Source of the DNA: Candidatus Latescibacterota bacterium
GTDB lineage: Bacteria; Latescibacterota; UBA2968
Assembly: GCA_965204375.1 (NCBI GenBank)
Contig: OZ241986.1
Coordinates: forward strand, 2,688,001 to 2,752,000
Length of the DNA: 64,000 nt
Direction of reading: 5' to 3'
Shown here: positions 11,513-28,063 of the stretch, piece after piece
Layout of the letters: each line of letters starts with the position of its first letter
Position numbering within the stretch: position 1 is the first letter of the stretch
The notes under the pieces: model-generated
Databases searched by the model: none
Told to the model about the DNA's origin: nothing
The model's input: the letters and a program-made list of their open reading frames with translations, nothing else
Translations under genes and position numbers: made by a program

Positions 11513-12514
11513 TCAATAAATCTGAATTGGATCGGGAATAAAACACAAAACAAAAATAGCCAAGGACGCGTACCCAATCCATCGCCGGGCGGGATCCAGT
11601 TCAACATCGGGATTTGCAGGCGGCGGATGATGCCGCCCCATCAGCGCAGCCAATCCCAACCACACCAGCCAACCGACCCAGCGGGAATCATACCAGGCCC
11701 TGAACACAGATTGTGCATCCCACCAGTGGTAAGGCGGTGCCAATAACCACATCAGAGCCAATCCCACCATTGTCGCCCGAGAAATTAACTGGTGTTTCCC
11801 ACCAAAAATCGCATATACAATATGCCCGCCATCAAATTGTCCCATCGGCAACAAATTCAACACCGTCACAAACAATCCCAACCAGCCCGCAAAAGCCACC
11901 GGGTGCAACATTATCGTGTAGCCCTCAGGCAGATCGCCAATAACCCAGTTGCCCAACCAGCCCGACAACAGGGAATGACCCAGTGCGAGTGTCCCTGCTG
12001 ACACATCCCGCGCTTCCATGATTTTCGACATGTGCAGACCAGCACTCCACGCAATCACCGACATCACAAATCCGGCAATAGGCCCAGACGCGCCAATATC
12101 GATAAGCGCCCGTCGGTTGGGAATTTGAGACCGCAATTTGATCACTGCGCCCAGGGTGCCAATAAACGAAGGGAAGGGGATAAAATAGGGCAATGACGCG
12201 CGCACGCCCCACCAGCGCGAAGTCACATAATGCCCCATCTCGTGTACGACCAAAATAATTAGCAATGTCATGGAAAACGGCAAGCCATAGACCAGATAAC
12301 GCGGATCGAAAATGCGCCAGTCTTCGAACACGGACATAGAGGCCAATTGTGGCGACATAATCATCCCCGCCACCGTCGTCGTGTACGCAGTCGCCAAAAA
12401 CAGCCCAACATGCAGCCTCAAATTCTCCTGCGTCCTGGGCAAAGCCGTCTGCGTGGGAAAATACCGATTATCATTCAAATCGTCTGACACAATCGCTCCT
12501 TCTTCTTCCTTCAC
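11513..12514 (-). CDS. Site-2 protease (M50) family membrane metalloprotease
   Basis: HEMGH and NLLPMGQFDGGH motifs; several transmembrane segments. Confidence 0.92.
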   Translation of the reverse strand: MKEEEGAIVSDDLNDNRYFPTQTALPRTQENLRLHVGLFLATAYTTTVAGMIMSPQLASMSVFEDWRIFDPRYLVYGLPFSMTLLIILVVHEMGHYVTSRWWGVRASLPYFIPFPSFIGTLGAVIKLRSQIPNRRALIDIGASGPIAGFVMSVIAWSAGLHMSKIMEARDVSAGTLALGHSLLSGWLGNWVIGDLPEGYTIMLHPVAFAGWLGLFVTVLNLLPMGQFDGGHIVYAIFGGKHQLISRATMVGLALMWLLAPPYHWWDAQSVFRAWYDSRWVGWLVWLGLAALMGRHHPPPANPDVELDPARRWIGYASLAIFVLCFIPDPIQIY

Positions 12515-12517
12515 CTT

Positions 12518-13402
12518 CTACCTTATCCCCACTGCAATGCGATGCGAATCGCCCAACCCCTGCGATGCAGGCACAAAAGCGTAATCCACCCGCCAGTTGC
12601 GCCGCGTAATACCCAGTCCAAACGACAACATGCGCGTATCGTGCCCGGTTTGAATCCCACCGCGCAAAAACAACCTGCCCATCACCCCGTATTCCAAACC
12701 AAAATTTGCACCTCTGTTGCCCACTGCTGGCAGGCGAAAATCGGCTGTTGCTATCCACGTGCGCCAGAACCACGCCACCCCCATGCGAAACACCCGGGGC
12801 AAGGGGGTGCGTGCCCGGTCTAACTGCGCCATCCGTCCCCAATTTCGATACGATGCTCCCAGCATCAAGTTCTCAGACAGGCGATACAACACGCCTCCAT
12901 CCGCGCTCATCCCCCACGCACTCTCTGGCCCGATATTTTCGTGCAATGCCCGAACCGAAAATCCCACATAAATTCGCTGCCCTATCTTCTGTGCAAAAGA
13001 CAACCCCGCATTGAGATCGTAAACACTAAACATGCCCGCAGGTGTCGCAGTCGGCTCCCGTCGCGCTTCCAATCCCCCAACCCCATAAACGCCCAAACTC
13101 AGCGCAAGGCCGCGCCTACCATTGCCATAAGCCCAGCCACCATACCCCTGCTTGATACCCTGAAACGATCGGTGGTGCGCCAGGATAAAATGTTTGCCCT
13201 GCATAGCTGCCACACCTGCCGGATTCCAAAACGCCGCCGTCTGTTCACCCACCACAGCGGTCTGCGCCTCACCCATCGCAGCAGCACGCGCACCAACTCC
13301 CTCGCGCAACAGCACAAAACCGGCCTTGCGTGCCGAAGCACTGGCCTCAGCGGAAAAAAGGCAACATGTCGCAATAAAAATGCCAAAAATAATGCGCTTC
13401 AC
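12518..13402 (-). CDS. PorV/PorQ-like outer membrane beta-barrel protein
   Basis: GARAAAMGEA and FWNPAG motifs, signal peptide, C-terminal beta strands (VDYAF...SHRIAVG). GTG start at 13402 behind AGGAGG. Confidence 0.75.
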   Translation of the reverse strand: MKRIIFGIFIATCCLFSAEASASARKAGFVLLREGVGARAAAMGEAQTAVVGEQTAAFWNPAGVAAMQGKHFILAHHRSFQGIKQGYGGWAYGNGRRGLALSLGVYGVGGLEARREPTATPAGMFSVYDLNAGLSFAQKIGQRIYVGFSVRALHENIGPESAWGMSADGGVLYRLSENLMLGASYRNWGRMAQLDRARTPLPRVFRMGVAWFWRTWIATADFRLPAVGNRGANFGLEYGVMGRLFLRGGIQTGHDTRMLSFGLGITRRNWRVDYAFVPASQGLGDSHRIAVGIR

Positions 13403-13449
13403 AAAAACCTCCTGATATAGAAATGCTCCAAAACCCAGCGTATCGAATA

Positions 13450-13544
13450 AGAGTAAGCAAACGGGCAAAATGTGTCAACCGCCCATTAGTAAAATGGACC
13501 ATCCCAAGCGCGTAATTGACAGTCTCTGATTTCCTGTTTACATT
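13450..13544. promoter_or_regulatory. Divergent sigma70-like promoter pair
   Basis: Minus strand TTGACA(13478-13473)-17-TACTCT; plus strand TTGACA(13516-13521)-17-TACATT(13539-13544). Confidence 0.6.
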
Positions 13545-13580
13545 GTGCAGAGGCTCATAGCAATTCTCATTGGAGTCATC

Positions 13581-14015
13581 ATGGCACAAGCAGAAATTGG
13601 CGACCGCGTCCAGATTTACTACAAGGGCATCCTGGAAGACGGAACCATAGCCGAAGGTACACCTGAGAACGAACCATTTGAATTTACAATGGGGGACGAA
13701 TCTGTAAAAGATATATTCACGCGCCTTGTAAACGGCATGGAAGAAGGCGACTCTCGCACGGTGATCCTATCTCCGGAAGATGCGTTTGGCCCCTATAATC
13801 CCGACTTTGTAATCGAAGTTGCGCGATCAAAATTCCCTCCTGATGCACTCCTCGAAAAGGGAATGCGCATGGAAGTACAGTCCGACCCCAATGGTACACC
13901 CATCGAAGTATCCGTCAAAGAAATAACATCCCAAACCGTTACATTAGATGGCAACCATCCCTTTGCGGGAGAAGAAATTACTATGACGATTCAATTGTTA
14001 GAGATTGTGGTTTAG
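13581..14015 (+). CDS. FKBP-type peptidyl-prolyl isomerase (SlyD/SlpA-like)
   Basis: Motifs LSPEDAFG and LDGNHPFAGE. Confidence 0.9.
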   Translation: MAQAEIGDRVQIYYKGILEDGTIAEGTPENEPFEFTMGDESVKDIFTRLVNGMEEGDSRTVILSPEDAFGPYNPDFVIEVARSKFPPDALLEKGMRMEVQSDPNGTPIEVSVKEITSQTVTLDGNHPFAGEEITMTIQLLEIVV

Positions 14016-14054
14016 TTGTACGAACGCATATCCGATGGAAAGGAACTTAGCAAA

Positions 14055-16406
14055 GTGAAAATAGATGAGACTGCACAATTCTGGAGAACTAAAAAACTTA
14101 GCGTCCGTGCATCCAATTGTCTGGCAAAAGCAGATATTGCAAACGAACAAGAGCTAATCAAAAAATTCACAACCCTTGATAGTCTAATTGCTCTCAGAAA
14201 TTGTGGCAGAAAAACAGCCGAAGAGATATGGAAATTTCTCACAAACTTAAAATTTGTCTCCAACTACGATCAGGAAACCGAAATTACATCGTTCAATTCG
14301 AGCAATAAGTATTCGCCCCAAACGCAATCGGTCTTTATCCCGCTTCTGAACATAAAAGTATCTGGTCAAACATGGGAAGCTCTTCAAAAAATTCCGGTCA
14401 ACAATATCCTATGGAGTGTTCGAACTCAAAACATTCTCCTTGTGCAAGGCTTCAAAACACTTGCCGAGATTGCTGAACTTTCCGCCAAACAATGGCTCAA
14501 ATTTAAGAATTTCCGACGCAAATCTCTGATCGAGATTCAGGAGACAGTCAATAGAATTATAGAAAACCCTGATATGTTTAATCCAGATGATGAGCATTCT
14601 GATCTGGATCCTAATCATTCTGTTAAATCACAATGGTTCTTTATACCGCTCTTAAACATAAAAGTATCTGTTCGCACATGGGCAGCTATTCAAAAGACTC
14701 CCGTCAACAGTATCCAATGGAGTGTTCGAACAAGAAATGTGATCAAGCAGCAGGGACTACAACAACTTGCCGACCTATGCCAATTTTCATCAGAGGAATG
14801 GCTCAGTTTTAGAAACTTCGGAAGTACCTCTTTGACTGAACTTCAAGTACGCTTGACCAAAACAGTCAAGCAACTTGGAGCCAATCTTGATATGCTTGAC
14901 CCGACCGATGAGGATTCTGATCCACGTCCTGAACATTCTAGCAAAGAGCAACCGCCGGTCTTTATCCCACTTCTGAACATAAAAGTATCTGGTCAGACAT
15001 GGATAGCTCTTCAAAATAGATCTATTCATCAATTAACCTGGAGTGTTCGGACCCAAAATATTCTCCTTGCACAAGACTTCAAAACACTTGCCGAGATTGC
15101 CAAACTTTCTCCCAAACAATGGCTCAAATTTAGAAATTTCGGGCGCAAATCCCTGACCGAAATTCAGGAAACAGTCAATAAAATTATAGCAAATCCCGAT
15201 GTGCTTGATCCGAAAACTGAGTATTCCGTGGAAGTATCACAGATTCAGACACTGACTGAACTCGGTCATGTGGTTTTTCAACGCCTGCAAATTCGCCAAC
15301 AGGAAGTTGTTAAATACTACCACGGTTATGACGAAACACCTAAAAACTTACAGCAAATTGGTGAATTACTTGGGTTTACTCGTGAGTACGTCAGACAAAT
15401 TAAGAAGACAGTCAACAACAAACTCAATCAGGGCGTGGACAATTATCTAATCACAACCACCATCTTCCGTCTTTTGAGCAAGTCTATCCGCTATATTCTA
15501 TCACAGTATGGCGGATTCTGTTCTGTCGAAAAACTCCAAGAAATTATTCGTCAGCGGTTGAGATGGGGAAATAGCGAACAGTGGATTATAAACTGGTTTA
15601 ATGAAGCATTCGGCGAGGCGTGGATATGCTCAGGAGCAGACGATTATAAAATTGTTGATGGTGTCTGCTATCTGAAATCGGGAGAATCCTTTCAGGACTT
15701 TTTAATACAACTCGCATCGAGACTCCAACATTACGGTTATCGACCATTGGCATTGGAAGAATGCCAAAATCTCATTGCAAAAATGGACGGAGCAGTATAC
15801 AACTGCGACAGCAGTTCAATAGCTTTCGATTCAAGTCGGTTGCTCGATGTAATTACCAGCTATCCCAGCTTAAAAGTTTATCGGTATGGTAAAACACACA
15901 TCGGACTAAAAGCATGGACCTGGTTCAATCCTGAAAAACCAATGACTGCCGCAGGACAAGCTTCACTCATCGAATGGTATCTCCGAATGACTAATGAGCC
16001 AGCCACGGCAAAAGAGATTGCCAATGGGATAGGGAGCCAACTTGGCAATTTCAGGTTGACGTCTTTCGACGTTGCCGATATTTGCGAAAAACACCCCTAT
16101 CGCTTTCAAGTTGATGACAATGGTGCCTACGGCTTACACCTTTGGGAAGAATCTTCAAAATATCGACAAGACCTCACAGAATTACTTTCAGATGAACCAT
16201 TATCTATTGAACAGATTGTAGAGGTATTATCCGCCCCAGAACCGGCTGATACGTTGCTAATTGTTGCAGCATTAAACTTTTCAGATTCGTTTGTAGAAAC
16301 GGTGCCTTTCGAGTGGGTATTAAAGCCACAGACGGGCACTATTAAAACGGAAGATGATTTCGATTATACCAATCTTACTTTTGAAGACTTAATACCTAAA
16401 TTATGA
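14055..16406 (+). CDS. Multi-domain protein: four RNA polymerase alpha-CTD-like repeats, a sigma-70 region-4 HTH and a C-terminal region
   Basis: LSVRASNCL...LRNCGRKTAEEI plus three WSVRTxN...FR/KNFGxxSLxEI/L repeats, then RQQEVVKYYHG...NLQQIGELLGFTREYVRQI. GTG start at 14055; the ORF is open from 14016. Confidence 0.8.
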   Translation: MKIDETAQFWRTKKLSVRASNCLAKADIANEQELIKKFTTLDSLIALRNCGRKTAEEIWKFLTNLKFVSNYDQETEITSFNSSNKYSPQTQSVFIPLLNIKVSGQTWEALQKIPVNNILWSVRTQNILLVQGFKTLAEIAELSAKQWLKFKNFRRKSLIEIQETVNRIIENPDMFNPDDEHSDLDPNHSVKSQWFFIPLLNIKVSVRTWAAIQKTPVNSIQWSVRTRNVIKQQGLQQLADLCQFSSEEWLSFRNFGSTSLTELQVRLTKTVKQLGANLDMLDPTDEDSDPRPEHSSKEQPPVFIPLLNIKVSGQTWIALQNRSIHQLTWSVRTQNILLAQDFKTLAEIAKLSPKQWLKFRNFGRKSLTEIQETVNKIIANPDVLDPKTEYSVEVSQIQTLTELGHVVFQRLQIRQQEVVKYYHGYDETPKNLQQIGELLGFTREYVRQIKKTVNNKLNQGVDNYLITTTIFRLLSKSIRYILSQYGGFCSVEKLQEIIRQRLRWGNSEQWIINWFNEAFGEAWICSGADDYKIVDGVCYLKSGESFQDFLIQLASRLQHYGYRPLALEECQNLIAKMDGAVYNCDSSSIAFDSSRLLDVITSYPSLKVYRYGKTHIGLKAWTWFNPEKPMTAAGQASLIEWYLRMTNEPATAKEIANGIGSQLGNFRLTSFDVADICEKHPYRFQVDDNGAYGLHLWEESSKYRQDLTELLSDEPLSIEQIVEVLSAPEPADTLLIVAALNFSDSFVETVPFEWVLKPQTGTIKTEDDFDYTNLTFEDLIPKL
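14331..15215 (+). repeat. Three intragenic repeats of about 310 bp encoding alpha-CTD modules
   Basis: TTTATxCCxCTxxTxAACATAAAAGTATCTG recurs in units starting at 14331, 14637 and 14958. Confidence 0.9.
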
Positions 16407-18046
16407 AAGGTTCACATCGCATGGTTTTGCCACAACATCAACAACCCATAACTATTCGACTTGCACGGAAAGCAGACATTGAAGGCGCGAAACGAATTGC
16501 GGACCAAAACCGATCAGAATTGGGATTTGTCAACATCGCCATTTTACAGGTAGCACAAAGCAAGGGCTGGCTACTTGTTGCAGCCGAATGGGAAGATCAG
16601 AGAAAGCATGATATGGTCATTGGCTTTGCAAACTTCCGAATTAGACAGGATAGAAATGCAACGCTGTATGAAATAGCAGTAGCTGATACACACAGGCGCA
16701 CAGGTGTCGGTACCCGTTTACTGAGCGAATTAATCCGACGTGTTCACCTTGCAGGAGGACAATATATTCGTCTCAAGTGCCCTGACGACCTAGATTCTAA
16801 TCAGTTTTACCAAAAATGCGGATTTCGGCATGTCGAAACGGAACAAGGGAAAAAAAGACGACTCCATGTGTGGCACTACCATATCCCCCCGACGCACGGC
16901 AAAGAGATAGAAACTTTCTCGATTACTTCACCTAATTCCATGGTTGATGAGAGGGAGACAAGGCATCCCATTGGATGGGAGGTCGAATCTCACATACCCG
17001 CGCATTTCTACGCTTCTTTGACTGTTTCACCGGATCAAATGAGAACATTGCACCACCTCTGGCATGAACATGCACACAATTTTGATTGGAAATTTGGCAA
17101 ATCGAATCCATTTCAACGAGTACTCATCTCGCCTGTCGTTGCTAGCAAGCAGACCTTTGATTTTGTGAGAGAACTAAAACGGACGGGTGAAACGGAAGTA
17201 GCCATGTTTGATTCTGGTGGCTATTTCGTCCAAAAGGGAGATATTTCTTACTACGATCTACATCGAAAACTCTATGAATGCTATAAGCGAGAGGATTGGG
17301 CGGATATATACGTTTTACCAGATAATCCGCCACTCAGCAAAGATTCGCTGAGTTCCGCTGAAGCGAAGATAAAACAAACTGTTGAAGGTAGCTTGCGCCT
17401 TTATAATGACCTTTCCGACACAATTCAGCAGCGGGCGATGCCCGTCGTTCACGCAACGAAAAGTGAACATCTCGACTATTGCCTGCGACATTACAAAAAT
17501 TTTAAAAAAATTGGGTTCGGCTCATTTCCCACAAGTGGGACTTCGAACTCTATCAACCGATTGAACATCAATGCACTGATGATTCTCCAACGGCTGACTC
17601 GAATGCTGAATTCTGACGGTGTTAAAATACATACTTTCGGTATTTCAACACCGCCCGCAATCTATCTGCTGTCATTGGTCGGTGTGCATTCGTTTGATTC
17701 CAATGGATGGATGCGCTCAGGTGGCTATGGCAAGGTCTTCCTACCATTTATGCGGGGTTATATGGTCACTTTTAATTCTCGAAATAATGGGAGTTTGAAT
17801 GAAGCGGAATTTAAATTATGGAAAGAAAACATACAGCATGATTGTCCGTTCTGTGATTCTTTTGATCGGCTTTCCAACAACCGATGGGATCGGATTATGC
17901 ACAATTTAATCGTTATGGCAGAATTGGAAACGCATCAGCGAACACCTCAAATGGATATGTTACAAGAGTTATCAGGAGCTTACTATCGTATGTCGGAAAG
18001 CTTAATAGGTGAAGACTTGTGGCCTATTAGTAATCACGACCTTTAA
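16403..18046 (+). CDS. GNAT acetyltransferase fused to a TGT/DpdA-like guanine transglycosylase
   Basis: N-terminal GNAT: LYEIAV...RRTGVGTRLL, NQFYQKCGF. C-terminal TGT fold: MFDSGGYFVQ, LPD, IHTFG, SFDSNGW, CPFC...HN. ATGA overlap with the upstream gene. Confidence 0.82.
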   Translation: MKGSHRMVLPQHQQPITIRLARKADIEGAKRIADQNRSELGFVNIAILQVAQSKGWLLVAAEWEDQRKHDMVIGFANFRIRQDRNATLYEIAVADTHRRTGVGTRLLSELIRRVHLAGGQYIRLKCPDDLDSNQFYQKCGFRHVETEQGKKRRLHVWHYHIPPTHGKEIETFSITSPNSMVDERETRHPIGWEVESHIPAHFYASLTVSPDQMRTLHHLWHEHAHNFDWKFGKSNPFQRVLISPVVASKQTFDFVRELKRTGETEVAMFDSGGYFVQKGDISYYDLHRKLYECYKREDWADIYVLPDNPPLSKDSLSSAEAKIKQTVEGSLRLYNDLSDTIQQRAMPVVHATKSEHLDYCLRHYKNFKKIGFGSFPTSGTSNSINRLNINALMILQRLTRMLNSDGVKIHTFGISTPPAIYLLSLVGVHSFDSNGWMRSGGYGKVFLPFMRGYMVTFNSRNNGSLNEAEFKLWKENIQHDCPFCDSFDRLSNNRWDRIMHNLIVMAELETHQRTPQMDMLQELSGAYYRMSESLIGEDLWPISNHDL

Positions 18047-18056
18047 CGGAGAAACT

Positions 18057-18899
18057 ATGGCACGGTCACACATCTTAAAAGGATTTTCAGATTTGGAGTC
18101 GGCATTGTGGGTTCACAAATACTACCCCGGACTTACAATTCGGCAAATGATCAAAAGAGCTTTGGAAAACGGTTACTCAGTAACAGATACCGCACGTTAT
18201 GAAGCAGTTCAGCTATTAAGCGAGTGGGGATTGGCGGATGGAAAAGGCCGATCATTAACTCCCGAAGGCCAGGCTTTCTATTCTCTATGGGAAACAAAAC
18301 GAAGTACCGCAATTGATTTTTTACACGGACGACAATACGGCTTATGGACCCAAAATCACCCCGACCAAAACATCGCTTCGTGGGCATATAAAAACATCTG
18401 TGACTACCTGTGGACACAGCAAACGCTTCCAGACAAAGATCGAGACCTGGTGTCTTACATCAATGATCTTCGTACTTCCGACGAAGTGGTGATTCCACCG
18501 GATACGGGTAATGCGTTCTCCAATAAGTCAATTAAAGACGCTTACGATTGGCTCCTACCATTAGATCCACCTGTCTTAGCTAACGGAGGAGTTGAGCACA
18601 GATCACTTAAAGACGCGATATTCACACAAAGAGCATTCTGTTCGACATTACTTTTTATGATGGGACTCGGTTATATTGTGCGAGAATCTGACACGGCATT
18701 TGGGGATCTGGTCAAAATTGACGATACGCGAAAACAGGCCATTTGTCGCTTCTGTCTCATCAGCGAAACCGGTTTCGATCTCATGCTTGACGAGGCACTA
18801 CGTCAGGTCTCTTACTCGTGCCTTTCGGTACAGCGGGACTGGGACGGGATTTACATGGTGTTGAATCAAGAGCCTGAGGTCAGGGACTTTATTGATTGA
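18057..18899 (+). CDS. Hypothetical protein of the defence cluster (possibly BrxA-like DNA-binding)
   Basis: 280-aa ORF with a GGAGA RBS, 10 nt after the GNAT-TGT stop. The BrxA-like call rests on context only. Confidence 0.6.
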   Translation: MARSHILKGFSDLESALWVHKYYPGLTIRQMIKRALENGYSVTDTARYEAVQLLSEWGLADGKGRSLTPEGQAFYSLWETKRSTAIDFLHGRQYGLWTQNHPDQNIASWAYKNICDYLWTQQTLPDKDRDLVSYINDLRTSDEVVIPPDTGNAFSNKSIKDAYDWLLPLDPPVLANGGVEHRSLKDAIFTQRAFCSTLLFMMGLGYIVRESDTAFGDLVKIDDTRKQAICRFCLISETGFDLMLDEALRQVSYSCLSVQRDWDGIYMVLNQEPEVRDFID

Positions 18900-18907
18900 A
18901 ATGCTCG

Positions 18908-19117
18908 AAAATTGCGATCCATTCCCTTCAAGAAGCGATCAACTATGAAGACGAAGAGGACGCTTGATTGCATTGAGATGAATGCCTTGGGCGGAACAAA
19001 TCTACAATCAAATCGCAAACCTGACACTCGAAGAACAACTAACTTTCTGGCAAGAACGACCCAAGTTGCAGTGAAAGCATCATGAAAAAAATGAGACACA
19101 AAACATCTACAAATTAA
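18908..19117 (+). pseudogene. Frameshifted copy of the small ORF at 28124, plus a PIN-toxin C-terminal relic
   Basis: Aligns by eye with about 28088-28303 (MKTKRTLDCIEM vs MKTKKTFDCVEM), then a 2-nt deletion and further indels. Confidence 0.8.
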
Positions 19118-19122
19118 ATTCG

Positions 19123-19656
19123 ATGCTCTGGCAATCTTACCATAGAAAACTGCTTGCATTGGCGGAAACCAGCGAGACTTTGACAGTTTCTCAGCAAACG
19201 GTCTGTCAGTTTTTGCGACAAGAGATTGGAGACTATCAGCAGCGTATCAATCTCTGGGGAAATCCAGGAGTCGGTAAAACGTTTCTCGTTCACCATCTCC
19301 ATCACTGTGCAGAAGGTCTCTATTTTTCATCTGTGGAAAATCGTCCAAGCACAGAAATTTCCCCAAATTCAGTGGTTATCATTGATAACGCACCATCTGA
19401 CCGAAGTTTGACGCGTTCCACCTTTGGGGATACGCTTTGGGCTGGCGCATCATCGGTAATTCTGGTAACACGCCAACCAATTGATGATGCGGTTCGGAGA
19501 ATTGAGTTGGCCCTGACAGATAGAGATAGGGCGCAAATTGAGGATGTGATGGGTAGGCTTTTCTCTCATTTGCCACCAGATAAGGTGCGCGATTTTGAAC
19601 GCTACCGCTCAGGAATTTGGGAACAACTTAAGGTGTTAGTAGAACAGGCGAGATAA
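19123..19656 (+). CDS. Small P-loop ATPase (BrxF-sized)
   Basis: Walker A GNPGVGKT; Walker B-like VVIIDN; 177 aa. Confidence 0.75.
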   Translation: MLWQSYHRKLLALAETSETLTVSQQTVCQFLRQEIGDYQQRINLWGNPGVGKTFLVHHLHHCAEGLYFSSVENRPSTEISPNSVVIIDNAPSDRSLTRSTFGDTLWAGASSVILVTRQPIDDAVRRIELALTDRDRAQIEDVMGRLFSHLPPDKVRDFERYRSGIWEQLKVLVEQAR

Positions 19657-19693
19657 AACATAGGCAAAATCCTATCGGGAGAGGATAATATAT

Positions 19694-22600
19694 ATGGCTT
19701 TAGAAGAGATCCGTCAGAAAAGAACTGTGATTGATACGCCAAGAGCATCAGACCTCGCGGCGAGACCCGACGAATGGGAAAACCGTTTTCAATTTCACGT
19801 CTCAACGCATGTCACGCTTGCAGATATGACCGATAAGTGGGATGCCATTCTTAAAAATCTCCTACAAGGGCGTTCGGCAACCGGACTCATCCATGCTGAT
19901 ACAGGATATGGCAAAACCTCAACAGCAGCCGCACTTTGGCATTATGCCGAAAAACGTGATGTAGTCACTGTGCCACCTTTTGCGTGGAATAGCATTGCTG
20001 ACATGCTCATCGCAACGCACGGTTGGGTCTGTCATCGCTTGAAGGTGACCAGACCGGATCTAATTTCTGATTTAGACCAAGAATATAAAACGCTGATTGC
20101 AAGTAGTAATGAAGATAGAGCGCTCAGAATAAGCCAAGAAGAAGAAGTTCCACTCGATTATGCTCGAAAGTCTGTCCAGTCCCTCAAAGCAAGGGGAGAT
20201 TTAACGGATGAGGTTTCCGCGAATCGTCTCATTGACTACCTGCTAAAGGCAACTTCAACGGTTCTTGAGGCAGACTACAAAGGGTTGCTTATTCTGCCAG
20301 ATGAGTTCGAACTTTTTGCCAATACGAACCCAGACATCGCCAAGAATTTTTCTGAACTCAAAGATTTTATTTTTTCGCTCTATCAAGAAGAGAATCTCCC
20401 AGTCGGCTGTGTGGTTCTGACCTACCGCCGAACATTTTCAACAATCCAAAACAGGGAACCTCACATAGTCGCACGTTTCAACCAGCCTCCAGGGAGTTCA
20501 ACGGACCTTGAGCAAGAATATGGAAAAATTGAAAACGGCAAATCTTTCGCCCACGAACTTTGGGAAAAGTTATCTATTACTTGTGACCTATCCAACGAGG
20601 AGCAAAATGCTATTGATCCAGATGTGCTGTTTGCCCTCGGACAATTTTTGGGGCATCAACGCACAACCCAACTGATTAGTGGCCCCAGGTCCGTTGTCGC
20701 GACGTTGCAACGAGCAGCTATTCACTACACTGAAACGCAACAGCCATATTCAATTTTCGATTTTTGTAAAGATTATATCTCTCAAGGCATCATCTGCTTC
20801 AACAACCAAGAAATCGACGCGGTCAAAGCCTATACCTCAATCATGAGCCAACCCATCATCGACGGTAACGAGGCGAGGCAACAAGTCGTCAAACTCCTAT
20901 GCATCTGTCCAGATGGCGTGCCGGAGGCACTTTTCAAGAAGCACAACATTTCTGATAAAGATCGCGCAGCAGTTGTGAATAAGTTATTGGGTACACACGT
21001 TATTAGAAAAATCATCGGACCGACATTAACCCACTACAAGGATGATCTGCAGGCAGGCGACGCACTCATTGAACTCCTAAAAGTCCTGAGGGATCAGTAC
21101 AACCCCGCAAGTCCAGAAACGCATCGCGCCGCTGTCAGGTCATTTGCAAATTTCATTTTACCCGAAATCTTCACTCAGACTGTAGGAGCATCCTTTACTG
21201 GTTGGGGAGGACTGAAAAAGATGGAAGGAGATATTGAACCGATATTTCAGGCTGCCTTATCGGGCAGTTCTCTCCGAGATTATCCTGATCGGACACTGAC
21301 AGTCCATGTTGGCACTGAGGAATTCCAAGAAATTAGCGGTGCCTATCGTGAAAGCCAGTTGTTCACCTCCTTTATTCTTAATACTCAGCAGGATAAGCAC
21401 ATCCCAAATACCTGTGACATTCATGCAGACAAGGTCTGTTTTCACCTCAACATCTCTGAAGCTATCGACAAACTAGAAATCCCAAAAGATATTGGCAAAC
21501 TCGGCGATCTCTTTCTCCCCGAGTCTGTTACCCCTTCGCTACTCTTGTCGATGCTCGACTTCTTTGCTCAAGAAACCACTCTTGCCCAAATCAAGGAGTT
21601 AAAACAGGACGCGCAGGTGCAACTCTTGGAAACCCAAATTCGTAACCAATTGATCGGTTACTTCTTCTCCGCTGAGGTCAAGAAAAGTGCTGTATCACAA
21701 CAGGCAGATTTAGCACAAGTGCCTGCAGGGAAAAATTTTGTTGAACGGGCTTTAGGTGTACTGATACGAAAAAAATTCAAATCATATCGTGCCATAGCGA
21801 TCTCACATCAGTGGAAAAAAAATTTGGGGATCTACATGCAGGTATTGAGAGACGCCGAAAATCTCGGAGTAAGGAGAGGTGAGGAACCGGTTGAAATGAT
21901 TGGCAGAGATGTGCCAAGGTTGTTTAATGTTGGTCAGCACACCACTTTTTCTAATACCTTCTACCCAGACGGTATTTTGCGTGATCTTTTGCTCGTCAAT
22001 GAACTTGACGTCAATGGAAAAACCGTAGCGGAAGGAGTTGAGGTTAAAAATAATCAGGGATCCGTTGCGGTATATCTCAAACTCCATGACATGGAAAAGC
22101 GCATTTTGAAGAGGCTGGAGAAAAGCGAAGAAAGCATCGTCGTTGATGGCAAGAGCACAGAAGCAATAAAATGCCACGAGATTTTCCAGCAGGAAGCAAA
22201 GTTTGGATATCTCAATGATGAAATTGAGGAGTTAATAAAAGTATTGACAGCAAGAGGATTAGTTGACCAAAAACAACAGCAAGGGAGGGATTACCTGTAT
22301 TGTGTTGAGACAGAAATCAATTTCGCCGAACTGCAAAGCAAATTCCAACGGCTTGAGGAAATTGAGGCACTGGCAAAATCAAATGGCTTCACCCCGGAAA
22401 GAGAAGGGAATAACTCGCTATCATCGGTTGGAGCAGATTTGCAGACAACCGGCATTGAGTTCGATGAAGTTCGCAAGGATTCATTACGGCAAAAACTCAA
22501 TTCCATTGAGCACGCTTTCACAACGCAGTGTGCAAGGTGGCTGGATACGGAAAAACAACGAGCCAATCAGAAACGCCATGAAATTGAGCCGTTGCGCCTT

Positions 22601-23779
22601 GATATTCCTAAAGTACTTGATGAAAAAACGGGACACCCATTGACAGAGTTTTCGACACTCCTGTTTAATAATATTCGCAGTGAGGTCAGGAAAGCGTATA
22701 CAGCTATCTCTGATCAAGTTTCCGCTTTACAGAATGAAGTCAAGAACACACTAAACGGAAAGTTACAAAAATACTACATGGAGGGTAGAAGTTCTGAAAC
22801 AGCAATTGACGTTGCGGCACAACTTCGGGACTTCTGCGGCGTGATTGATACAAAAATCGGTGTACTGCGGACTTCTCAAAAAAAGGCTGAACAACTTTAC
22901 ACATTTTTTGAGAAATGGCGCACGCTTGCCAGACAGATAGAAAATGATCGGCAAATGATGCACGATGCAAACTCCAACGATGCTATCAACAATCTTATTG
23001 GCCGGTTAGATACAGAACAGCAACAAATCAAAAAACATCTCGCTAATCGGACATTGAGTCTGAGCCAAGTCCTTGAAAATCATGAACACTTCGCCAAACG
23101 ATTCTTAGAAATCAAGGATGAATACGATCAGATTACTGCTAACCGGAGGGATGAATTTATCAAATTCCAAGCTGAAATTGAAAAGGAACTCAATGAATTG
23201 CTTGAAAAGCCTCATATCGGAGAACCCTACAATCCGTTAGACGAAGATGGATCCTACCGCCGAGTCCAGGAAAAAGTAGTTGAAAGAATTCAAGAATTCA
23301 GTGAAAAGGCAGTTAAGAGTGTTCAAGCCATCATGAGCGATCTGATGAAACCAATCGAAGTTTTCGAAGTCAAGCCCAAGGTCAAAAATGATGCTATGGC
23401 TTTGCAAGAGAAGCTCTCAGCATTAGAAATTCGGATCAGTCATATTGATCGGAAACTAAAACCTAATGGTATTGAGGATCAATTGTCCGAGTTAGTTCAA
23501 TCTTTGCTTAAAATGAGAGAAGAAGGTACAGAGTTGGTGCAGCAATGGGAAGATATTCAAGGTCAGTTAAGATGTGACAAGAGTGAGTTAAGTCCCAAGG
23601 CAAGAGCACTGTTGGACCTGATTGAAATGGATACAGACAAAGATTTCACAGAACTTATTATTGATCTCAGGCAGTCTGGAAATGAAATGTTTGGTTCGAC
23701 TTCAGAGATTATCGAGAGTCTGGAAGAATTATATCAATACAATTGGCTGAACATCAAAATCTCACGCACAACTGCATAA
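19694..23779 (+). CDS. Large P-loop ATPase with long C-terminal coiled coil (BrxC/PglY-like)
   Basis: Walker A ADTGYGKT, Walker B LLILPDEFE, long heptad-rich helical C-terminal part; 1361 aa; GAGGA RBS. Confidence 0.75.
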   Translation: MALEEIRQKRTVIDTPRASDLAARPDEWENRFQFHVSTHVTLADMTDKWDAILKNLLQGRSATGLIHADTGYGKTSTAAALWHYAEKRDVVTVPPFAWNSIADMLIATHGWVCHRLKVTRPDLISDLDQEYKTLIASSNEDRALRISQEEEVPLDYARKSVQSLKARGDLTDEVSANRLIDYLLKATSTVLEADYKGLLILPDEFELFANTNPDIAKNFSELKDFIFSLYQEENLPVGCVVLTYRRTFSTIQNREPHIVARFNQPPGSSTDLEQEYGKIENGKSFAHELWEKLSITCDLSNEEQNAIDPDVLFALGQFLGHQRTTQLISGPRSVVATLQRAAIHYTETQQPYSIFDFCKDYISQGIICFNNQEIDAVKAYTSIMSQPIIDGNEARQQVVKLLCICPDGVPEALFKKHNISDKDRAAVVNKLLGTHVIRKIIGPTLTHYKDDLQAGDALIELLKVLRDQYNPASPETHRAAVRSFANFILPEIFTQTVGASFTGWGGLKKMEGDIEPIFQAALSGSSLRDYPDRTLTVHVGTEEFQEISGAYRESQLFTSFILNTQQDKHIPNTCDIHADKVCFHLNISEAIDKLEIPKDIGKLGDLFLPESVTPSLLLSMLDFFAQETTLAQIKELKQDAQVQLLETQIRNQLIGYFFSAEVKKSAVSQQADLAQVPAGKNFVERALGVLIRKKFKSYRAIAISHQWKKNLGIYMQVLRDAENLGVRRGEEPVEMIGRDVPRLFNVGQHTTFSNTFYPDGILRDLLLVNELDVNGKTVAEGVEVKNNQGSVAVYLKLHDMEKRILKRLEKSEESIVVDGKSTEAIKCHEIFQQEAKFGYLNDEIEELIKVLTARGLVDQKQQQGRDYLYCVETEINFAELQSKFQRLEEIEALAKSNGFTPEREGNNSLSSVGADLQTTGIEFDEVRKDSLRQKLNSIEHAFTTQCARWLDTEKQRANQKRHEIEPLRLDIPKVLDEKTGHPLTEFSTLLFNNIRSEVRKAYTAISDQVSALQNEVKNTLNGKLQKYYMEGRSSETAIDVAAQLRDFCGVIDTKIGVLRTSQKKAEQLYTFFEKWRTLARQIENDRQMMHDANSNDAINNLIGRLDTEQQQIKKHLANRTLSLSQVLENHEHFAKRFLEIKDEYDQITANRRDEFIKFQAEIEKELNELLEKPHIGEPYNPLDEDGSYRRVQEKVVERIQEFSEKAVKSVQAIMSDLMKPIEVFEVKPKVKNDAMALQEKLSALEIRISHIDRKLKPNGIEDQLSELVQSLLKMREEGTELVQQWEDIQGQLRCDKSELSPKARALLDLIEMDTDKDFTELIIDLRQSGNEMFGSTSEIIESLEELYQYNWLNIKISRTTA

Positions 23780-23792
23780 AGCGAGGAGTAAA

Positions 23793-24923
23793 TTGGATAG
23801 GTTGTTCAAATCTCTAAAGAAAATTCCGTGCCTGACAAATCTACCAAAGGAGACGCGAGGACTATGGGAGATGTGCTTGGCTGATATTTGGTGTCCCAGT
23901 TCGCTAGCAGAATGGCGCGAGACTGTTGATGCTCCCTGGGAAGTTCCTGCAAAAGAAGTGCTCTTTGTGAATTTCCCAGAAGCTGAAAGCAAAGAATTGA
24001 CGGACACTTTTGGTTTTCCCAAAATTGACCTTCCTCCGTTACCTCTAATCGAATACGTAAACCAGAAATTACCCGAGCATTTCAACACCTTATGCACAGA
24101 CGACTCGAAACTCTTAAAACAATCACAACTCGTCCAGACAGTTACAGAACGCGTATCATATACGCTTCCCGACATTGTGGTTTTTCTGGTGCTTGATGGG
24201 CTGTCGTTGTACGATGTGGCAGATTGGGCATTCCCAAAATCTTGGCACATGATGTGTGAACCTTGTCTTGTTGATGGACTAAGCGTCACAACGAGTGGCA
24301 TGCGTCGGTTAATCGGGTCGCCACCCTTAACACATCAATTGTTTACATTAGGGTACATGCAGCGGTTAGGATTTTCATATTGGGAGCGTTCTAAAAATCA
24401 GCTTACTAACATACTCTTTTCCGAATTTCCACCGAGCCAATTGTTTCGCATCACAACCTTTGAAGAGATTTTAGATAGATTACAGAATACGGACATACCC
24501 AACCGAACGTTCATCCAAATTGTCCGCACAGGACTCGATGGGGTCTGCCACAATCACAGAGAAAAACCGAATATAGACGCAATGCTTAGTCAACTTAAAT
24601 TGGACATTGAGCAGATTGTCGAAGCGGTTGGCTCATCTCAGAAAACGGTACGGGTTTTTATAACCAGCGACCATGGGATTCTTTGGTTCACAAAACAAAA
24701 AGTGATGCCATTTCAATCGGGTAATACCTCCGCTCGTTATACTTATGCGGAATCCTCACCTGACACATCAAGAATCACCATTGCTGAATCCGGAGAGCCA
24801 GTTACAGTTTTGACAGGCGATAAAGTCATCGCCAGAAAATGTAAAGTGACGGAGTGGGGATTTCACGGTGGGATTTCTGCACAAGAATCTTTCGTGCCTT
24901 TATTCGACATCACACCCATATAG
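23793..24923 (+). CDS. PglZ-like alkaline phosphatase superfamily protein
   Basis: VFLVLDGLS, VFITSDHG and HGGISAQESFVP match the PglZ core motifs; AGGAG RBS before a TTG start. Confidence 0.82.
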   Translation: MDRLFKSLKKIPCLTNLPKETRGLWEMCLADIWCPSSLAEWRETVDAPWEVPAKEVLFVNFPEAESKELTDTFGFPKIDLPPLPLIEYVNQKLPEHFNTLCTDDSKLLKQSQLVQTVTERVSYTLPDIVVFLVLDGLSLYDVADWAFPKSWHMMCEPCLVDGLSVTTSGMRRLIGSPPLTHQLFTLGYMQRLGFSYWERSKNQLTNILFSEFPPSQLFRITTFEEILDRLQNTDIPNRTFIQIVRTGLDGVCHNHREKPNIDAMLSQLKLDIEQIVEAVGSSQKTVRVFITSDHGILWFTKQKVMPFQSGNTSARYTYAESSPDTSRITIAESGEPVTVLTGDKVIARKCKVTEWGFHGGISAQESFVPLFDITPI

Positions 24924-24935
24924 TAGGTAATTCAA

Positions 24936-26144
24936 ATGGCAGAAGTCAACTTGCGAATCGGTACAGAATACGAAAGCGACGAACTGATTTATATGAATGC
25001 GACAGGGTCACGTGCCGTTTTCATCTGCGGCAAGCGTGGATCTGGCAAAAGCTATACCATGGGAGTTATTATTGAAGAACTGTTCAACCAAGAACAGGAT
25101 GAGGCAACGATTATCATTGCCGACCCGATGGGAATTTACCACACGATGGCTCAGCCAAACGAAACGCAAGCCGATGAAGTCCGTGATGCCGGATTTCTTA
25201 CCAGTGGTTTTCCCGTTCGACTCATTGTCCCAGGCGATCCCTTGATTCGATACGGTGATGCTGCGGTGCTTGCGAAGTTACGAGAAAACGAGGTCGAAGT
25301 CGTTCCACTTGAAATTAACGCCGCTGACCTTTCTCCCGAGGCCTGGTGTGAGTTGTTCGACATTGGCATAAACGACGCAATGGGAATTGTTTTGTGGAGA
25401 GCTGTTGATACACTTCTTGAAAAAGATCAACATTTTACGATTGATGATATTCTTTCGGCAATCCAAGAAGACCGAAAGGCAAAAGATACCTCCAAAGAGG
25501 CTTTAGAAAATCGGCTAACGGTGGCTAATCGCTGGGGAATTTTCGCAAAAGAACCAACTTCGTTGAATGATTTATTTCTCTTAAATCATATTAACATCTT
25601 AGACCTTAGTGTGATTGATGCAGGTACAAAAGGACTACGTAACATGGTACTCGATGTTGTCTCCCGTCGTCTTTTTACTGAACGAACCCGAGAAAGACGT
25701 AGAGAGGAGTTTGGATTATCTACAAAACTACCGCGGGTTTGGCTGGCGATTGACGAAGCTCATCAATTTGTCCCAAAAGGACGAGCCTCGCTCTGCAAGG
25801 AAATGCTCATTCGTTGGGTGAAAGAAGGACGTCAGCCGGGACTTAGCCTCGTTGTAGCAACCCAACAGCCAGCTGCGATTGACCCTGAGCTATTATCACA
25901 ATGCGATGTCATTGTCGCACATAAAATTACAACTTGGGATGACATTAACGCACTTGACCGACTGAGTGCTACTTACATGGAAGGGGACTTAAAGAGCTAC
26001 ATTCGCGATCTGAATCGTAGGGGTGAAGCCTTGTTAGTCGATGATGAAACTGAGTCTGTTGCGACAATTCGAGTTCGCCCGCGATTTAGTTCGCATGGCG
26101 GTGCTGAAATTCAAGAGAAGACTATCCAGAAATTTTTATTTTAA
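24936..26144 (+). CDS. HerA/FtsK-family ATPase (DUF87-like)
   Basis: Motifs GKRGSGKSYT, DPMG, LAIDEAHQF and KEGRQPGLSLVVATQQP. Confidence 0.88.
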   Translation: MAEVNLRIGTEYESDELIYMNATGSRAVFICGKRGSGKSYTMGVIIEELFNQEQDEATIIIADPMGIYHTMAQPNETQADEVRDAGFLTSGFPVRLIVPGDPLIRYGDAAVLAKLRENEVEVVPLEINAADLSPEAWCELFDIGINDAMGIVLWRAVDTLLEKDQHFTIDDILSAIQEDRKAKDTSKEALENRLTVANRWGIFAKEPTSLNDLFLLNHINILDLSVIDAGTKGLRNMVLDVVSRRLFTERTRERRREEFGLSTKLPRVWLAIDEAHQFVPKGRASLCKEMLIRWVKEGRQPGLSLVVATQQPAAIDPELLSQCDVIVAHKITTWDDINALDRLSATYMEGDLKSYIRDLNRRGEALLVDDETESVATIRVRPRFSSHGGAEIQEKTIQKFLF

Positions 26145-26201: not shown

Positions 26202-26492
26202 ATGCAAACTCCAACAAAAGAATGGATACACAAGGCGGTGGATGGGCTTCCTGATCAAGAGACAGAACAACTGAAAGACTACCTCGAATTTCTAACCTGG
26301 AAAGCCAAGGAGAAGAAATCATCGTCGGAGCAAAGAAAAAAAAATCCGACTGCGCAACGCATTATCAAAGCAATGGAAAAACCGCCCTATGTCACGCATG
26401 AAGACATCGAATCACTTTTACAAGTGATCAAAGAAGCAAAGCAACCGACACATTTTGAGTCACCCTTTGAGTCGGATGAGCAAAAAGATTAA
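26202..26492 (+). CDS. Putative antitoxin
   Basis: Small ORF coupled by a TAATG overlap to the downstream PIN gene; AGGAG RBS. Confidence 0.7.
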   Translation: MQTPTKEWIHKAVDGLPDQETEQLKDYLEFLTWKAKEKKSSSEQRKKNPTAQRIIKAMEKPPYVTHEDIESLLQVIKEAKQPTHFESPFESDEQKD

Positions 26493-26911
26493 TGAGCAGA
26501 TATCTATTAGAAACCACAACTTGTAGCCGCTTGATGGAAAATGAACCCACCGTCAAGAGGCATTTGGAATCTCTGACCGATTTGGACTACTCCTTCACTA
26601 TTCCTATCGTCCACGGAGAGATACTGTATGGGATTGAACGGTTGCCAAAAGGAAAAAGAAAGCGAGATATTTCGCAGAGGGCCAATCGTCTTTTTTCCGA
26701 AATTCAATGCGACCCCATTCCAAAAGAAACGGCCACCCACTACGCAAAACTCAAACGGCAAGCCGAGGGACAGGGAACCTCCGTCGCAGAAAATGACCTC
26801 TGGATCGCTGCGACAGCTCTGGCGTTAGATGCGATTCTGGTGACTTCTGATACTGATTTTCAGAGGATTCAGGGATTGTTGGGTTTGCAGTTAGAGGATT
26901 GGACTACTTGA
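26492..26911 (+). CDS. vapC: VapC-type PIN domain toxin
   Basis: Motifs YLLETT (E in place of the usual D), GEILYG, NDLWIAATA and LVTSDTDF. Confidence 0.88.
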   Translation: MSRYLLETTTCSRLMENEPTVKRHLESLTDLDYSFTIPIVHGEILYGIERLPKGKRKRDISQRANRLFSEIQCDPIPKETATHYAKLKRQAEGQGTSVAENDLWIAATALALDAILVTSDTDFQRIQGLLGLQLEDWTT

Positions 26912-26932: not shown

Positions 26933-28063
26933 ATGTGTTTTAGAAAACCTGGCTGGACCAGTTTTTTGCGACACCAGGGTCCCGATTTTCTCAAATGGAT
27001 TGAGAAAGAAAATATTCTATTGAGGAAATTTGATGCATTAGCGACAGCACTATATTCACTACTAAAGGCTCGTATCAATACAACCGAGGCCGCTCAGGCT
27101 GTCTGGAGAACTGTTCCAGATGTATTGGCTCGCTGTAACGAACAAGACACCTATGAAAAGCCGGGAGCATTTGATGCATACGCTTGGCTACACTTGTTAG
27201 AACGCTATGTCCGAACCTGGCTCGCTCTGGAAAAACTTGTAGAGGCGTGTTGCCTTCCATTAGCAAAGCACGGGATACGTGCTTTGGATGTGGGAACTGG
27301 CCCTGGCCCATCCGCATTTGCGGTTCACGACTTTTACAGTGCTATGACCGAATTTTCTGAACAGACAGGTAATTTGAAATGGAGACAACCCGCCAAGGTC
27401 ACTCCTGTCGATCTTAGCCATAGCACCAATGAGCTACGATATCAGCTCGAACAGTCTCTACGAAAATCGGAAAAAGTAATTATACAATACGACGTCTTGC
27501 CGAATTTTGGCAACATTATGCCAAGGCAAGAACGTGAAGCACTCAGAGAACGTTTACTTTATGAGGACGTGTACTTCGATGAAGACCATGGTGAGGAAGA
27601 ATCTTGGTACTCGGCAGATGAGATCAATCACATAGTTCAATCTTTGCATCGATACCGCCTGATTACATTTAGTAACTTTCTTACTACTGAGGATACGGTA
27701 AACAAATTCAGACCTAATCTTGACGGTATTTTTCGCGATGCCCGTACAGGCACTGTCATCCTGGTACTTGGCGGCAAAGGAAAAAAGTATCAAAAAATAT
27801 ATAAAAAGTTGGACTGCATAGCTGAACAGACAGGATTTCAACGGAAAGTTGTCGAGGAAAGAATATCTGCCAAAGACAGCGGACTCGCCGAACGAATCTA
27901 CAAAGAAGGCTGGCGATTTTACAAACACCTCCAATGCCTCGCTCCAAATGAAAACCCTAAGGCAAGGGAGACACGAAAAGTATGTCAAGAGTTTAAAAAC
28001 GGAAAACTGTGTTTCCATTCCAGTCAGCTACGCGCATACCGAAAATACCGCTATACAATGTAG
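26933..28063 (+). CDS. Putative class I SAM-dependent methyltransferase-fold protein
   Basis: RALDVGTGPGP SAM-binding motif; FSNFLT. Confidence 0.6.
   Translation: MCFRKPGWTSFLRHQGPDFLKWIEKENILLRKFDALATALYSLLKARINTTEAAQAVWRTVPDVLARCNEQDTYEKPGAFDAYAWLHLLERYVRTWLALEKLVEACCLPLAKHGIRALDVGTGPGPSAFAVHDFYSAMTEFSEQTGNLKWRQPAKVTPVDLSHSTNELRYQLEQSLRKSEKVIIQYDVLPNFGNIMPRQEREALRERLLYEDVYFDEDHGEEESWYSADEINHIVQSLHRYRLITFSNFLTTEDTVNKFRPNLDGIFRDARTGTVILVLGGKGKKYQKIYKKLDCIAEQTGFQRKVVEERISAKDSGLAERIYKEGWRFYKHLQCLAPNENPKARETRKVCQEFKNGKLCFHSSQLRAYRKYRYTM

Follow-up and report, generated by a model that had tools for sequence, protein, structure and literature searches.

Can a defence system of the bacteriophage exclusion (BREX) type mark the DNA of its host by a replaced base, and not by methyl or sulfur? 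This question was raised by a gene island of Candidatus Latescibacterota bacterium, located in a stretch of 64,000 nucleotides (nt) (contig OZ241986.1 of assembly GCA_965204375.1, positions 2,688,001 to 2,752,000 of the forward strand) that is called the window here and whose numbering is used below. The first-pass annotation of this DNA had described a BREX/Dpd/HerA hybrid in which a GNAT domain fused to a tRNA-guanine transglycosylase (TGT) domain serves as the writer and no DNA methyltransferase is present. We found that the operon is real and widely conserved and that its anatomy is well supported. With moderate confidence, we regard an anti-phage defence that resembles restriction-modification (R-M), works by base exchange and is built from two modules as the best explanation of the locus.

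Seven co-oriented open reading frames (ORFs) on the + strand, at positions 14016-26144, form the candidate operon and are referred to as A to G. A (14016..16406, 796 amino acids (aa)) is a DNA-binding protein with RNA polymerase modules, and B (16403..18046, 547 aa) is the GNAT-TGT fusion and presumed writer. The ORF of C (18009..18899) comprises 296 aa, with a likely start at 18057 that gives 280 aa and is favoured by the database gene call and the invariant M17; the protein is composed of winged-helix modules and belongs to no named family. D (19123..19656, 177 aa) is a small P-loop NTPase, E (19694..23779, 1361 aa) is an AAA+ ATPase of the BrxC/BrxD type, F (23793..24923, 376 aa) is a short PglZ protein of the alkaline phosphatase fold and presumed phosphodiesterase or nuclease effector, and G (24936..26144, 402 aa) is a short HerA/FtsK-type ATPase. 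The intergenic spacings are, in order, -4, 10, 223, 37, 13 and 12 nt, the 223-nt gap being that between C and D. The GC content is 0.41-0.46 over 14-30 kb of the window versus about 0.50-0.55 on the flanks, and the low-GC island is bounded by an FKBP isomerase gene and polA. The description of seven mostly tightly spaced genes in an AT-richer island was thus accurate, and the domain calls made for A, B, D, E, F and G hold in the Pfam, PADLOC and NCBIfam scans, with C still the 280-aa protein of no named family that it had been called. As had also been reported, no ORF of the island matched a model of a methyltransferase, DpdB, DpdC, PglX or BrxL in these scans, nor one of a phosphoadenosine phosphosulfate (PAPS) reductase; models of BrxA and BrxB were likewise unmatched in the locus, and no ParB-like or DUF328 protein was found among the island ORFs. 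All PADLOC and NCBIfam matches of the operon's proteins are far below the curated thresholds, except for the HerA domain.

A scan anchored on the E family, with one genome per species, gave 45 loci, in which genes were counted by tblastn and iterated hidden Markov models (HMMs), the GNAT by tblastn. All of these loci come from bacterial genomes or metagenome-assembled genomes (MAGs) of Latescibacterota, Gemmatimonadota, Poribacteria and Chloroflexota (Anaerolineae). The TGT and C genes were each found in 40 loci and always adjoined one another; D was present in 36, F in 33 and G in 32, and an A-like gene was detected by the iterated HMM directly upstream of the TGT gene in 32. The GNAT was found in 36 of the 45, and all nine misses are contigs that end in or beside the system. 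The gene arrangement is far beyond chance, and the same order recurs in the 45 loci. In particular, the order A-[GNAT-TGT]-C-D-E-F-G was observed in the Latescibacterota/Gemmatimonadetes group and at locus L010; in Poribacteria, D lies behind E and directly upstream of F, and in Chloroflexi a stand-alone GNAT gene follows G. Since these genes are found together in different phyla, fused or separate and in varying order, we consider them to be a functional unit. A conserved synteny of TGT, PglZ, ATPase and HerA genes, which the first-pass annotation had named as a check, is therefore present in other genomes of four phyla. Within the phylum of the window, the E family occurs in 10 of 168 genomes, and the genes that flank the system in the window match none of the related loci.

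Comparison of the loci also revealed which parts are constant. At four of them (L039, L043, L045 and L046), E is directly followed by the GNAT gene, without D, F and G, although the contigs continue, and L045 is from a complete genome. Two further loci from the genus of the window, which we designate subtype 2, were located at L093 (G087:C1:3677000-3696999), positions 5728-20000, and L094 (G084:C1:1-16000), positions 1006-15962. Both carry a GNAT-TGT fusion, a C-like gene (~1e-12) and an E-like gene (1e-104), and proteins of 576 and 441 aa together with a DEAD/DEAH-type helicase of more than 1344 aa replace D-PglZ-HerA downstream. The helicase is closely related to PDB entry 9wae_A (2e-144), with no MZB domain found at that locus; the 576-aa and 441-aa proteins had no sequence relatives in the PDB, and A was undetected in both loci. 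As evident from these variants, the constant core consists of TGT, GNAT, C and E, which A joins in the loci of the PglZ/HerA type, and D, F and G behave as one exchangeable, dispensable module. PglZ, HerA and the small ATPase, which had been taken for the chassis of the system, are thus its dispensable part, absent or replaced in variant loci. This modularity resembles that of Dnd, Ssp and R-M systems, whose modification modules also occur as orphans or re-paired with other partners.

Two kinds of irregular locus were additionally noted. In an Anaerolineales MAG (L048, 5534-16772), a decayed copy of the whole system has every component split into short ORF fragments. Extra DNA lies between the small NTPase and PglZ genes of two Poribacteria loci (L012, 14491-17742, ~3.2 kb; L015, 14523-15359, ~0.8 kb).

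We next consider the presumed writer. B contains a GNAT domain at about residues 1-165 (Pfam, 1.7e-12) and a transglycosylase of the TGT fold at about residues 196-547, for which the Pfam TGT match (2.1e-5) is under the cut-off (24.2 versus 26.3 bits); the TGT model was also matched in the PADLOC and NCBIfam scans. The AlphaFold2 (AF2) model of B had a mean predicted local distance difference test (pLDDT) score of 81.9. Upon Foldseek comparison of this model with the PDB, its GNAT domain matched GNATs of the Ard1/RimI type (3e-10, prob 1.00; TM 0.85 to Ard1), and its second domain matched bacterial, archaeal and human tRNA-guanine transglycosylases (4.5e-9 and up, prob 1.00; 4.5e-9 to 9e-9 for the bacterial and archaeal ones). 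The motifs FDSGGY, LPD, GFGSF, H-FG, FDS and HxCxxC...RxxHN are invariant across 21 B homologues, with the invariant residues D270 (FDSGGY), D432 (FDS) and H479/C481/C484/H500 among them, and the FDS and CxxC...HN segments align to archaeosine TGT 1iq8 in a profile search of the PDB (1.1e-3). From the TGT literature, we take FDSGGY and FDS to hold the catalytic Asp residues and HxCxxC...H to be the zinc site; likewise, the RRTGVGT motif in the GNAT domain is presumably the acetyl-CoA motif. Because the Asp and zinc motifs are invariant and the fold is that of a TGT, the TGT domain of B is predicted to be active and is apparently a competent enzyme. Its substrate base could be supplied by the host: the genome encodes QueC (2.9e-78) and two copies of QueF (1.8e-28 and 2.5e-26), so that preQ0 and preQ1 should be available. 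A separate canonical tgt gene is also present (Pfam TGT, 2.8e-163), at window positions 8932-10071 on the - strand, about 4 kb upstream of the island.

Relatives of the writer pair were found in phages. A Foldseek search of viral models with B returned a 257-aa TGT (31% identity, 1.2e-20) and a 135-aa GNAT (35%, 5.4e-15), and a scan of IMG/VR and GenBank phages placed the two genes side by side in the Thermocrinis Great Boiling Spring virus (TGBSV). There, the pair adjoins genes of a sliding clamp, a helicase, a PD-(D/E)XK nuclease and a DNA polymerase, on a contig that also carries a terminase. The TGBSV TGT keeps the catalytic motifs and lacks the zinc subdomain; QueC was not found on the partial TGBSV genome. 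Additionally, the cultured Dinoroseobacter phage vB_DshS-R5C (R5C) encodes a GNAT that belongs to this subfamily (2e-15, 36% over 90 aa). Its gene lies two genes after that of a TGT, and the surrounding cluster carries the annotations QueD, QueC, GTP cyclohydrolase, QueF and radical SAM. Among 50,697 phage records, the phage GNAT matched only TGBSV and R5C. Judged from homology and gene context, the simplest reading is that the phage GNAT modifies a 7-deazaguanine either before or after its insertion into DNA; the phage pairs suggest that DNA is the target, and an acylated 7-deazaguanine is a possible product. As a separate observation, two unannotated 735-kb "uncultured phage" records (LR756501.1 / LR756503.1, 159564-159971) encode a GNAT that is 32% identical to B residues 9-157.

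The remaining core proteins are presumed to handle DNA. The AF2 model of C (pLDDT 86.7) contained winged-helix modules, and Foldseek gave only weak matches to single winged helix-turn-helix (wHTH) domains (E>0.3) and no match to the whole protein. C had no match in Pfam, PADLOC or NCBIfam, and its relatives form 194 database clusters, with a Pfam domain in none among the 120 matches listed. We presume from the model that C is the DNA-binding partner of the writer, and its wHTH architecture may be analogous to that of the tripartite DUF4007 protein. For C, the Atlas proposed PF28110 (DpdG) at 0.88, which we regard as a lead only.

E carries the Walker A motif GYGKT (K74) and the Walker B motif LPDE (D203 E204), followed by a long C-terminal half that is apparently helical. 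Neither C nor E had a meaningful match when searched as a profile against PDB sequences, and the sole Pfam match of the window's E was AAA_16 at 9e-4. The N-terminal 760 residues of E reached 111 database clusters, almost all unannotated, and an exhaustive profile search of 50%-identity representatives yielded 394 at E<=1e-3 and 260 at <=1e-30. Among 35 distant family members, 18 matched PF10923 (BrxC_BrxD; best 1.7e-7), and the PADLOC models of BrxD and SspC were matched by 7 and 1 of them, respectively. E had no direct match to DUF6079 (PF19557) or to the PADLOC BrxC and PglY models, and HMM searches of the window's genome for DUF6079, DUF4007 and BrxB found nothing at the locus. An hhalign comparison of the 35 distant relatives with 10 same-phylum DUF6079 proteins gave a probability of 19% (E 1.2e-3, 85 columns), on small, shallow alignments, so that a deeper search might yet link the two; DUF6079 itself occurs in 16 of the 168 genomes of the phylum. 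Atlas neighbours of E carry BrxC_BrxD or DUF6079, which we treat as a lead only. On the strength of the PF10923 and BrxD matches of its distant relatives, E is assigned as a probable BrxC/BrxD-type ATPase, though not as a named DUF6079 protein; the BrxC-type reading of the large ATPase that the first-pass annotation implied is thus supported through distant family members and not by any direct DUF6079, BrxC or PglY match.

A contains four stretches of RNA_pol_A_CTD (Pfam, 4e-48), a Sigma70_r4 domain (5e-8) and, in its C-terminal domain, a HARE-HTH-like stretch. It showed weak matches to MzaA (3.5e-6) and BREX_PglW (2.4e-5) of NCBIfam and to PADLOC PglW (3.2e-7, region 803-982), and it weakly resembles the alpha-CTD-like domain and wHTH segment that are described for PglW of type 2 BREX (PMC12839542). 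The versions in Chloroflexi have Sigma70_r4 and alpha-CTD and add sigma region 2 or a clear HARE-HTH, and in Poribacteria the gene has shrunk to an alpha-CTD protein of 79-127 aa. A is an additional conserved component, the eighth, and may serve as a DNA targeting factor, a regulator or a sensor. We also observed that its alpha-CTD units are near-identical tandem repeats of ~107 aa (window 14016-16406 and the homologues in L004-L009, L019 and L020), and the ORF lengths of close homologues, which vary from 579 to 1006 aa, suggest that the repeat number is variable.

The dispensable module comprises two NTPases and the PglZ-like protein. D has the Walker A motif GNPGVGKT and the Walker B motif IIDN. 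Its family gave only generic P-loop matches (AAA_16 in 17/41 and nSTAND3 in 3/41 scanned C and D members); nSTAND3/NACHT matches were limited to a few D family members, and the window's D had a weak AAA_16 match. F matched PADLOC PglZ (6.5e-6), NCBIfam BREX_PglZ_2 (1.2e-6) and PglZ_4 (7.5e-6) and Pfam PglZ (2.2e-3), all weakly, and also had a weak Phosphodiest match in Pfam; in a profile search of the PDB, only PorX (0.12) and PglZ (0.62) appeared, again weakly. Across 17 sequences, DGLS (D135), T166, D249/H253, DHG (293-295) and HGGxSxxE (358-365) are invariant in F. G, the best-conserved protein of the locus (45-92% identity across loci), matched Pfam DUF87 (3.1e-20) and PADLOC HerA (4.2e-24), mad8 (6.9e-22) and DndH (3.8e-8), and has its Walker A motif, GKRGSGKS, at residue 32. 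A complex of D and F was predicted with a score of 0.56, compared with 0.01 for the best control; the runs agreed in at least 94% of contacts, and the partners had pLDDT values of at least 78. Among solved complexes, 58 of 80 attained the mark used, against 2 of 110 among mismatched pairs, and the range up to 0.60 held only 7 of the 80 solved complexes and both passing mismatches, so that this prediction lends weak support to a D-F pairing.

A system of closely similar composition has been proposed. Rakesh and Krishnan (Nucleic Acids Res 2026, PMC12839542) defined in silico the "BREX-Related Capture" (BRC) system in 45 taxa, archaea included. As described there, its parts are a short PglZ, a DUF6079 ORC/Cdc6 ATPase, a STAND NTPase homologous to BrxB, a BrxA-like DUF4007 protein, HerA/FtsK, GNAT and TGT; GNAT and TGT are "occasionally fused", DpdB and DpdC are not among the parts, and PglZ has an N-terminal inactive Swi2/Snf2-like domain and lacks the extra domains of BREX PglZ. 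In their description, every system has HerA and only some have GNAT/TGT, and the authors proposed self-marking by TGT and GNAT with restriction by a PglZ that HerA feeds. This bears out the caveat in the first-pass annotation that surveys might have predicted BREX/HerA/Dpd hybrids, and removes its claim to novelty of the concept, since the same idea had already been published. In the papers searched, we found no experimental study on BRC, on DpdA with an acetyltransferase or on acetyl-dPreQ1 in phage.

The present locus and BRC, as the paper describes it, have the same parts in kind and the same proposed logic, and both are purely computational. In particular, both have a HerA/FtsK ATPase and GNAT and TGT genes. 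F is short (376 aa), and its PglZ region has weak model matches and conserved metal and nucleophile motifs. In contrast, C does not match DUF4007, E does not match the DUF6079 model directly, and the A-type alpha-CTD/sigma-4 gene, which is absent from the BRC parts list, is additionally conserved. Moreover, GNAT and TGT are constant here and HerA, PglZ and the NTPase are optional, with HerA absent from the 4 complete variant loci, which is the reverse of the published statement. The sizes can be set side by side as 394 E-family representatives (50% identity) and 45 bacterial loci versus 45 taxa including archaea. Set against BRC as described in that paper, our clade is filed as a BRC variant and not as a proven member. 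The concept is thus published already; the present clade stands apart by the protein families of two components, the A gene, a writer cassette whose restriction modules can be exchanged and the homologues of the writer pair in phages.

Other known systems are more distant. The Ssp and type-4 BREX systems, in which SspB is a DUF4007 protein and SspC a BrxC-type ATPase, with SspD as a further component (PMC12839542), are similar to the locus, as far as described there, in that a non-methyl mark is proposed and the writer travels with a DNA binder of ~280 aa and a large BrxC-type ATPase; the restriction partners are separable, and one of the 35 E relatives matches SspC. They differ in inserting sulfur, compared with the base exchange proposed here, and in their DUF4007 protein, to which C does not align. 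DUF4007 occurs in 45/168 genomes of the phylum, including 12/20 of the same genus, with Ssp-type-like gene sizes (L064-L075 and L087-L091); these Ssp-like loci matched none of the profiles of the system and were ruled out as relatives. The locus shares with Dpd a transglycosylase of the TGT superfamily in a context of defence or anti-restriction that depends on preQ0 or preQ1 supply, as known in part from Cui et al. (2023, PMC10516641), who reported methyl- and formyl-preQ1 in phage DNA, the preQ1 amine being decorated by DpdM (methyl) and DpdN (formyl). The terms "acetyl", "GNAT" and "acetyltransferase" each occur 0 times in PMC10516641. The canonical BREX types 1-3 have, as the locus does, a PglZ-domain protein and a BrxC/BrxD-type ATPase in one operon. 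However, this core of PglZ and BrxC/PglY is present in the window as distant relatives, below every curated cut-off, neither a PglX methyltransferase nor the PAPS reductase of type 4 accompanies it, and PglZ is ~376 aa long versus ~700-900 aa. G matches PADLOC mad8 of the MADS system (mad1-mad8; PMC13662399) over its whole length (6.9e-22), where MAD7 and MAD8 are described as an ATPase-nuclease pair. MADS, as described, uses m6A methylation as its DNA mark and includes kinase and OLD-like modules; it has nothing further in common with the locus, and a relationship beyond the HerA-like ATPase was rejected.

In the base-exchange model that we favour, the core (TGT, GNAT, C and E, with A) would mark the host DNA. 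The TGT would swap guanine in DNA for a 7-deazaguanine from the host queuosine (Q) pathway, the GNAT would acylate this base or its precursor, and C, E and A would provide DNA binding, the choice of sites and ATP-driven access, analogous to the way in which SspB/SspC assist the enzymes of sulfur transfer in the Ssp and type-4 BREX systems. The D-F-G module would restrict unmarked DNA, with HerA pumping the DNA and PglZ nicking or cleaving it. Homology, the fold model, synteny and the phage relatives argue for such a BREX/Dpd/HerA hybrid, whereas a specific link to DpdA, which the hybrid had implied, did not emerge.

Several results weigh against this model. The best structural matches of the B TGT in Foldseek are tRNA TGTs; DpdA was not among the Foldseek matches listed from ranks 1-50, and DpdA 7ui4 reached no better than E=0.26 when the PDB was searched with the profile. 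Judged from sequence and model comparisons, the B TGT is therefore without a specific tie to DpdA and no closer to it than to tRNA TGTs, and the locus contains no equivalent of DpdB, DpdC or the Dpd helicase set. The structures closest to the B GNAT, Ard1 and RimI, are protein N-terminal acetyltransferases. The phage copies come from two phages only, and the R5C TGT is distant from B (14% identity in Foldseek). C is unlike BrxA, SspB and DUF4007 in HMM searches (no match to PF13182), and hhalign of C against 11 DUF4007 proteins gave a probability of 0.1%, with small and shallow reference alignments that a deeper search might connect. D gave no BrxB signal in HMM searches, and its Walker B motif is DN, without an acidic residue after the Asp, which makes its hydrolytic activity uncertain. 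All PglZ matches of F lie far below the curated cut-offs. The folds and motifs, the synteny, the modular presence and absence, the preQ0/preQ1 genes of the host and the phage homologues of the writer pair are observed, whereas DNA as the substrate, the identity of the base, the logic of self and non-self and the defence function itself are deduced.

The kinship with tRNA enzymes suggests a different role, in which the GNAT-TGT pair writes no mark on DNA and would instead modify tRNA, exchanging a base and/or acetylating charged tRNA, and halt translation once a BREX-like sensor detects infection. GNAT toxins of the AtaT/TacT type acetylate charged tRNA, the TGT superfamily consists mainly of tRNA enzymes, and the fold matches just given, together with the missing DpdA signal, agree with this role. 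We nevertheless consider it unlikely, as phages carry the pair in clusters for DNA replication and preQ1 synthesis, a poor place for an effector that kills the host; moreover, the pair is constant in the system, persists without PglZ/HerA and always travels with DNA-binding proteins, in a genome that already has a canonical tgt. The conserved nucleophile Asp and base pocket would also permit base excision chemistry, and phages with deazaguanine DNA exist (PMC10516641, as far as that report describes them), so that the TGT could read, excise or be trapped on foreign 7-deazaguanine or an odd guanine, which HerA and PglZ would then process, with no self-mark; that no site-specificity subunit is recognisable accords with this. 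Such modification-dependent restriction is quite improbable in our judgement: variants that keep TGT, GNAT, C and E without a recognisable nuclease module fit an orphan writer better, the phage copies of TGT and GNAT favour a writer as well, and the universal GNAT would be left without a role.

The system might also not be immune at all and instead be an epigenetic, DNA-maintenance or mobile-element module, engaged in segregation, repair or regulation, whose BREX-like parts are shared DNA-handling domains. The transcription-factor-like domains of A and the use of HerA/FtsK ATPases in repair and segregation are in line with this, as are the weak matches to PADLOC and NCBIfam defence models and a defence reading drawn from gene content. 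To this possibility we assign a low probability, since the patchy spread (10/168 genomes), a low-GC island beside a VapBC-like pair, the swapped downstream modules, the decayed copy at L048 and the capture of writer genes by phages are all typical of defence systems.

Returning to the base-exchange model, we tentatively combine the observations in a more specific proposal, which is itself doubtful. GNAT and TGT would write a new base, an N-acylated 7-aminomethyl-7-deazaguanine of the acetyl-preQ1 type, and the genes A-TGT-C-E-GNAT would together make up a portable writer cassette that can be paired with different restriction modules, here NTPase-PglZ-HerA and in the sister loci the large helicase set. 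TGBSV and R5C would have captured the pair to disguise their own DNA, and A, built solely from DNA-binding modules of RNA polymerase (alpha-CTD, sigma-4, HARE-HTH), may couple marking or sensing to promoters or lure RNA polymerase-hijacking phage factors. Should the base-exchange model be right, no earlier BREX-type immunity would have had a replaced base, in place of methyl or sulfur, as the self-mark, and the natural 7-deazaguanine derivatives in DNA might gain a ninth member. On its own, the writer cassette would then be expected to modify DNA, and an isolated PglZ/HerA module to be either toxic or inactive. Hundreds of clusters at 50% identity make up this large family, with its 45 genome loci concentrated in MAGs of Poribacteria, Latescibacterota and Chloroflexota, which have been little studied for phage defence.

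Other genes of the region were recorded as well. A VapBC-like toxin-antitoxin pair lies directly 3' of the HerA gene (window 26202-26911) and consists of a 96-aa ORF and a 139-aa PIN-domain ORF (PIN, 3.3e-18) that overlap by 1 nt. Between the system and polA lie a family-less 376-aa protein (26933-28063) and a 169-aa MORN-repeat protein (28339-28848). Since the VapBC-like pair, the 376-aa protein and the MORN protein are kept in 0 of the 45 related loci, they were not counted in the system. Elsewhere in the window's genome, we found a second, different TGT-HerA island (L049, G000:C1:5841000-5860999, - strand, 2401-11426). It encodes a 582-aa fusion of a DUF6884/YaaA-like domain and a TGT (1.8e-8), a 715-aa protein of no assigned family, a 607-aa HerA, a UvrD helicase and a PD-(D/E)XK nuclease, and it adjoins a DarT/NADAR pair.

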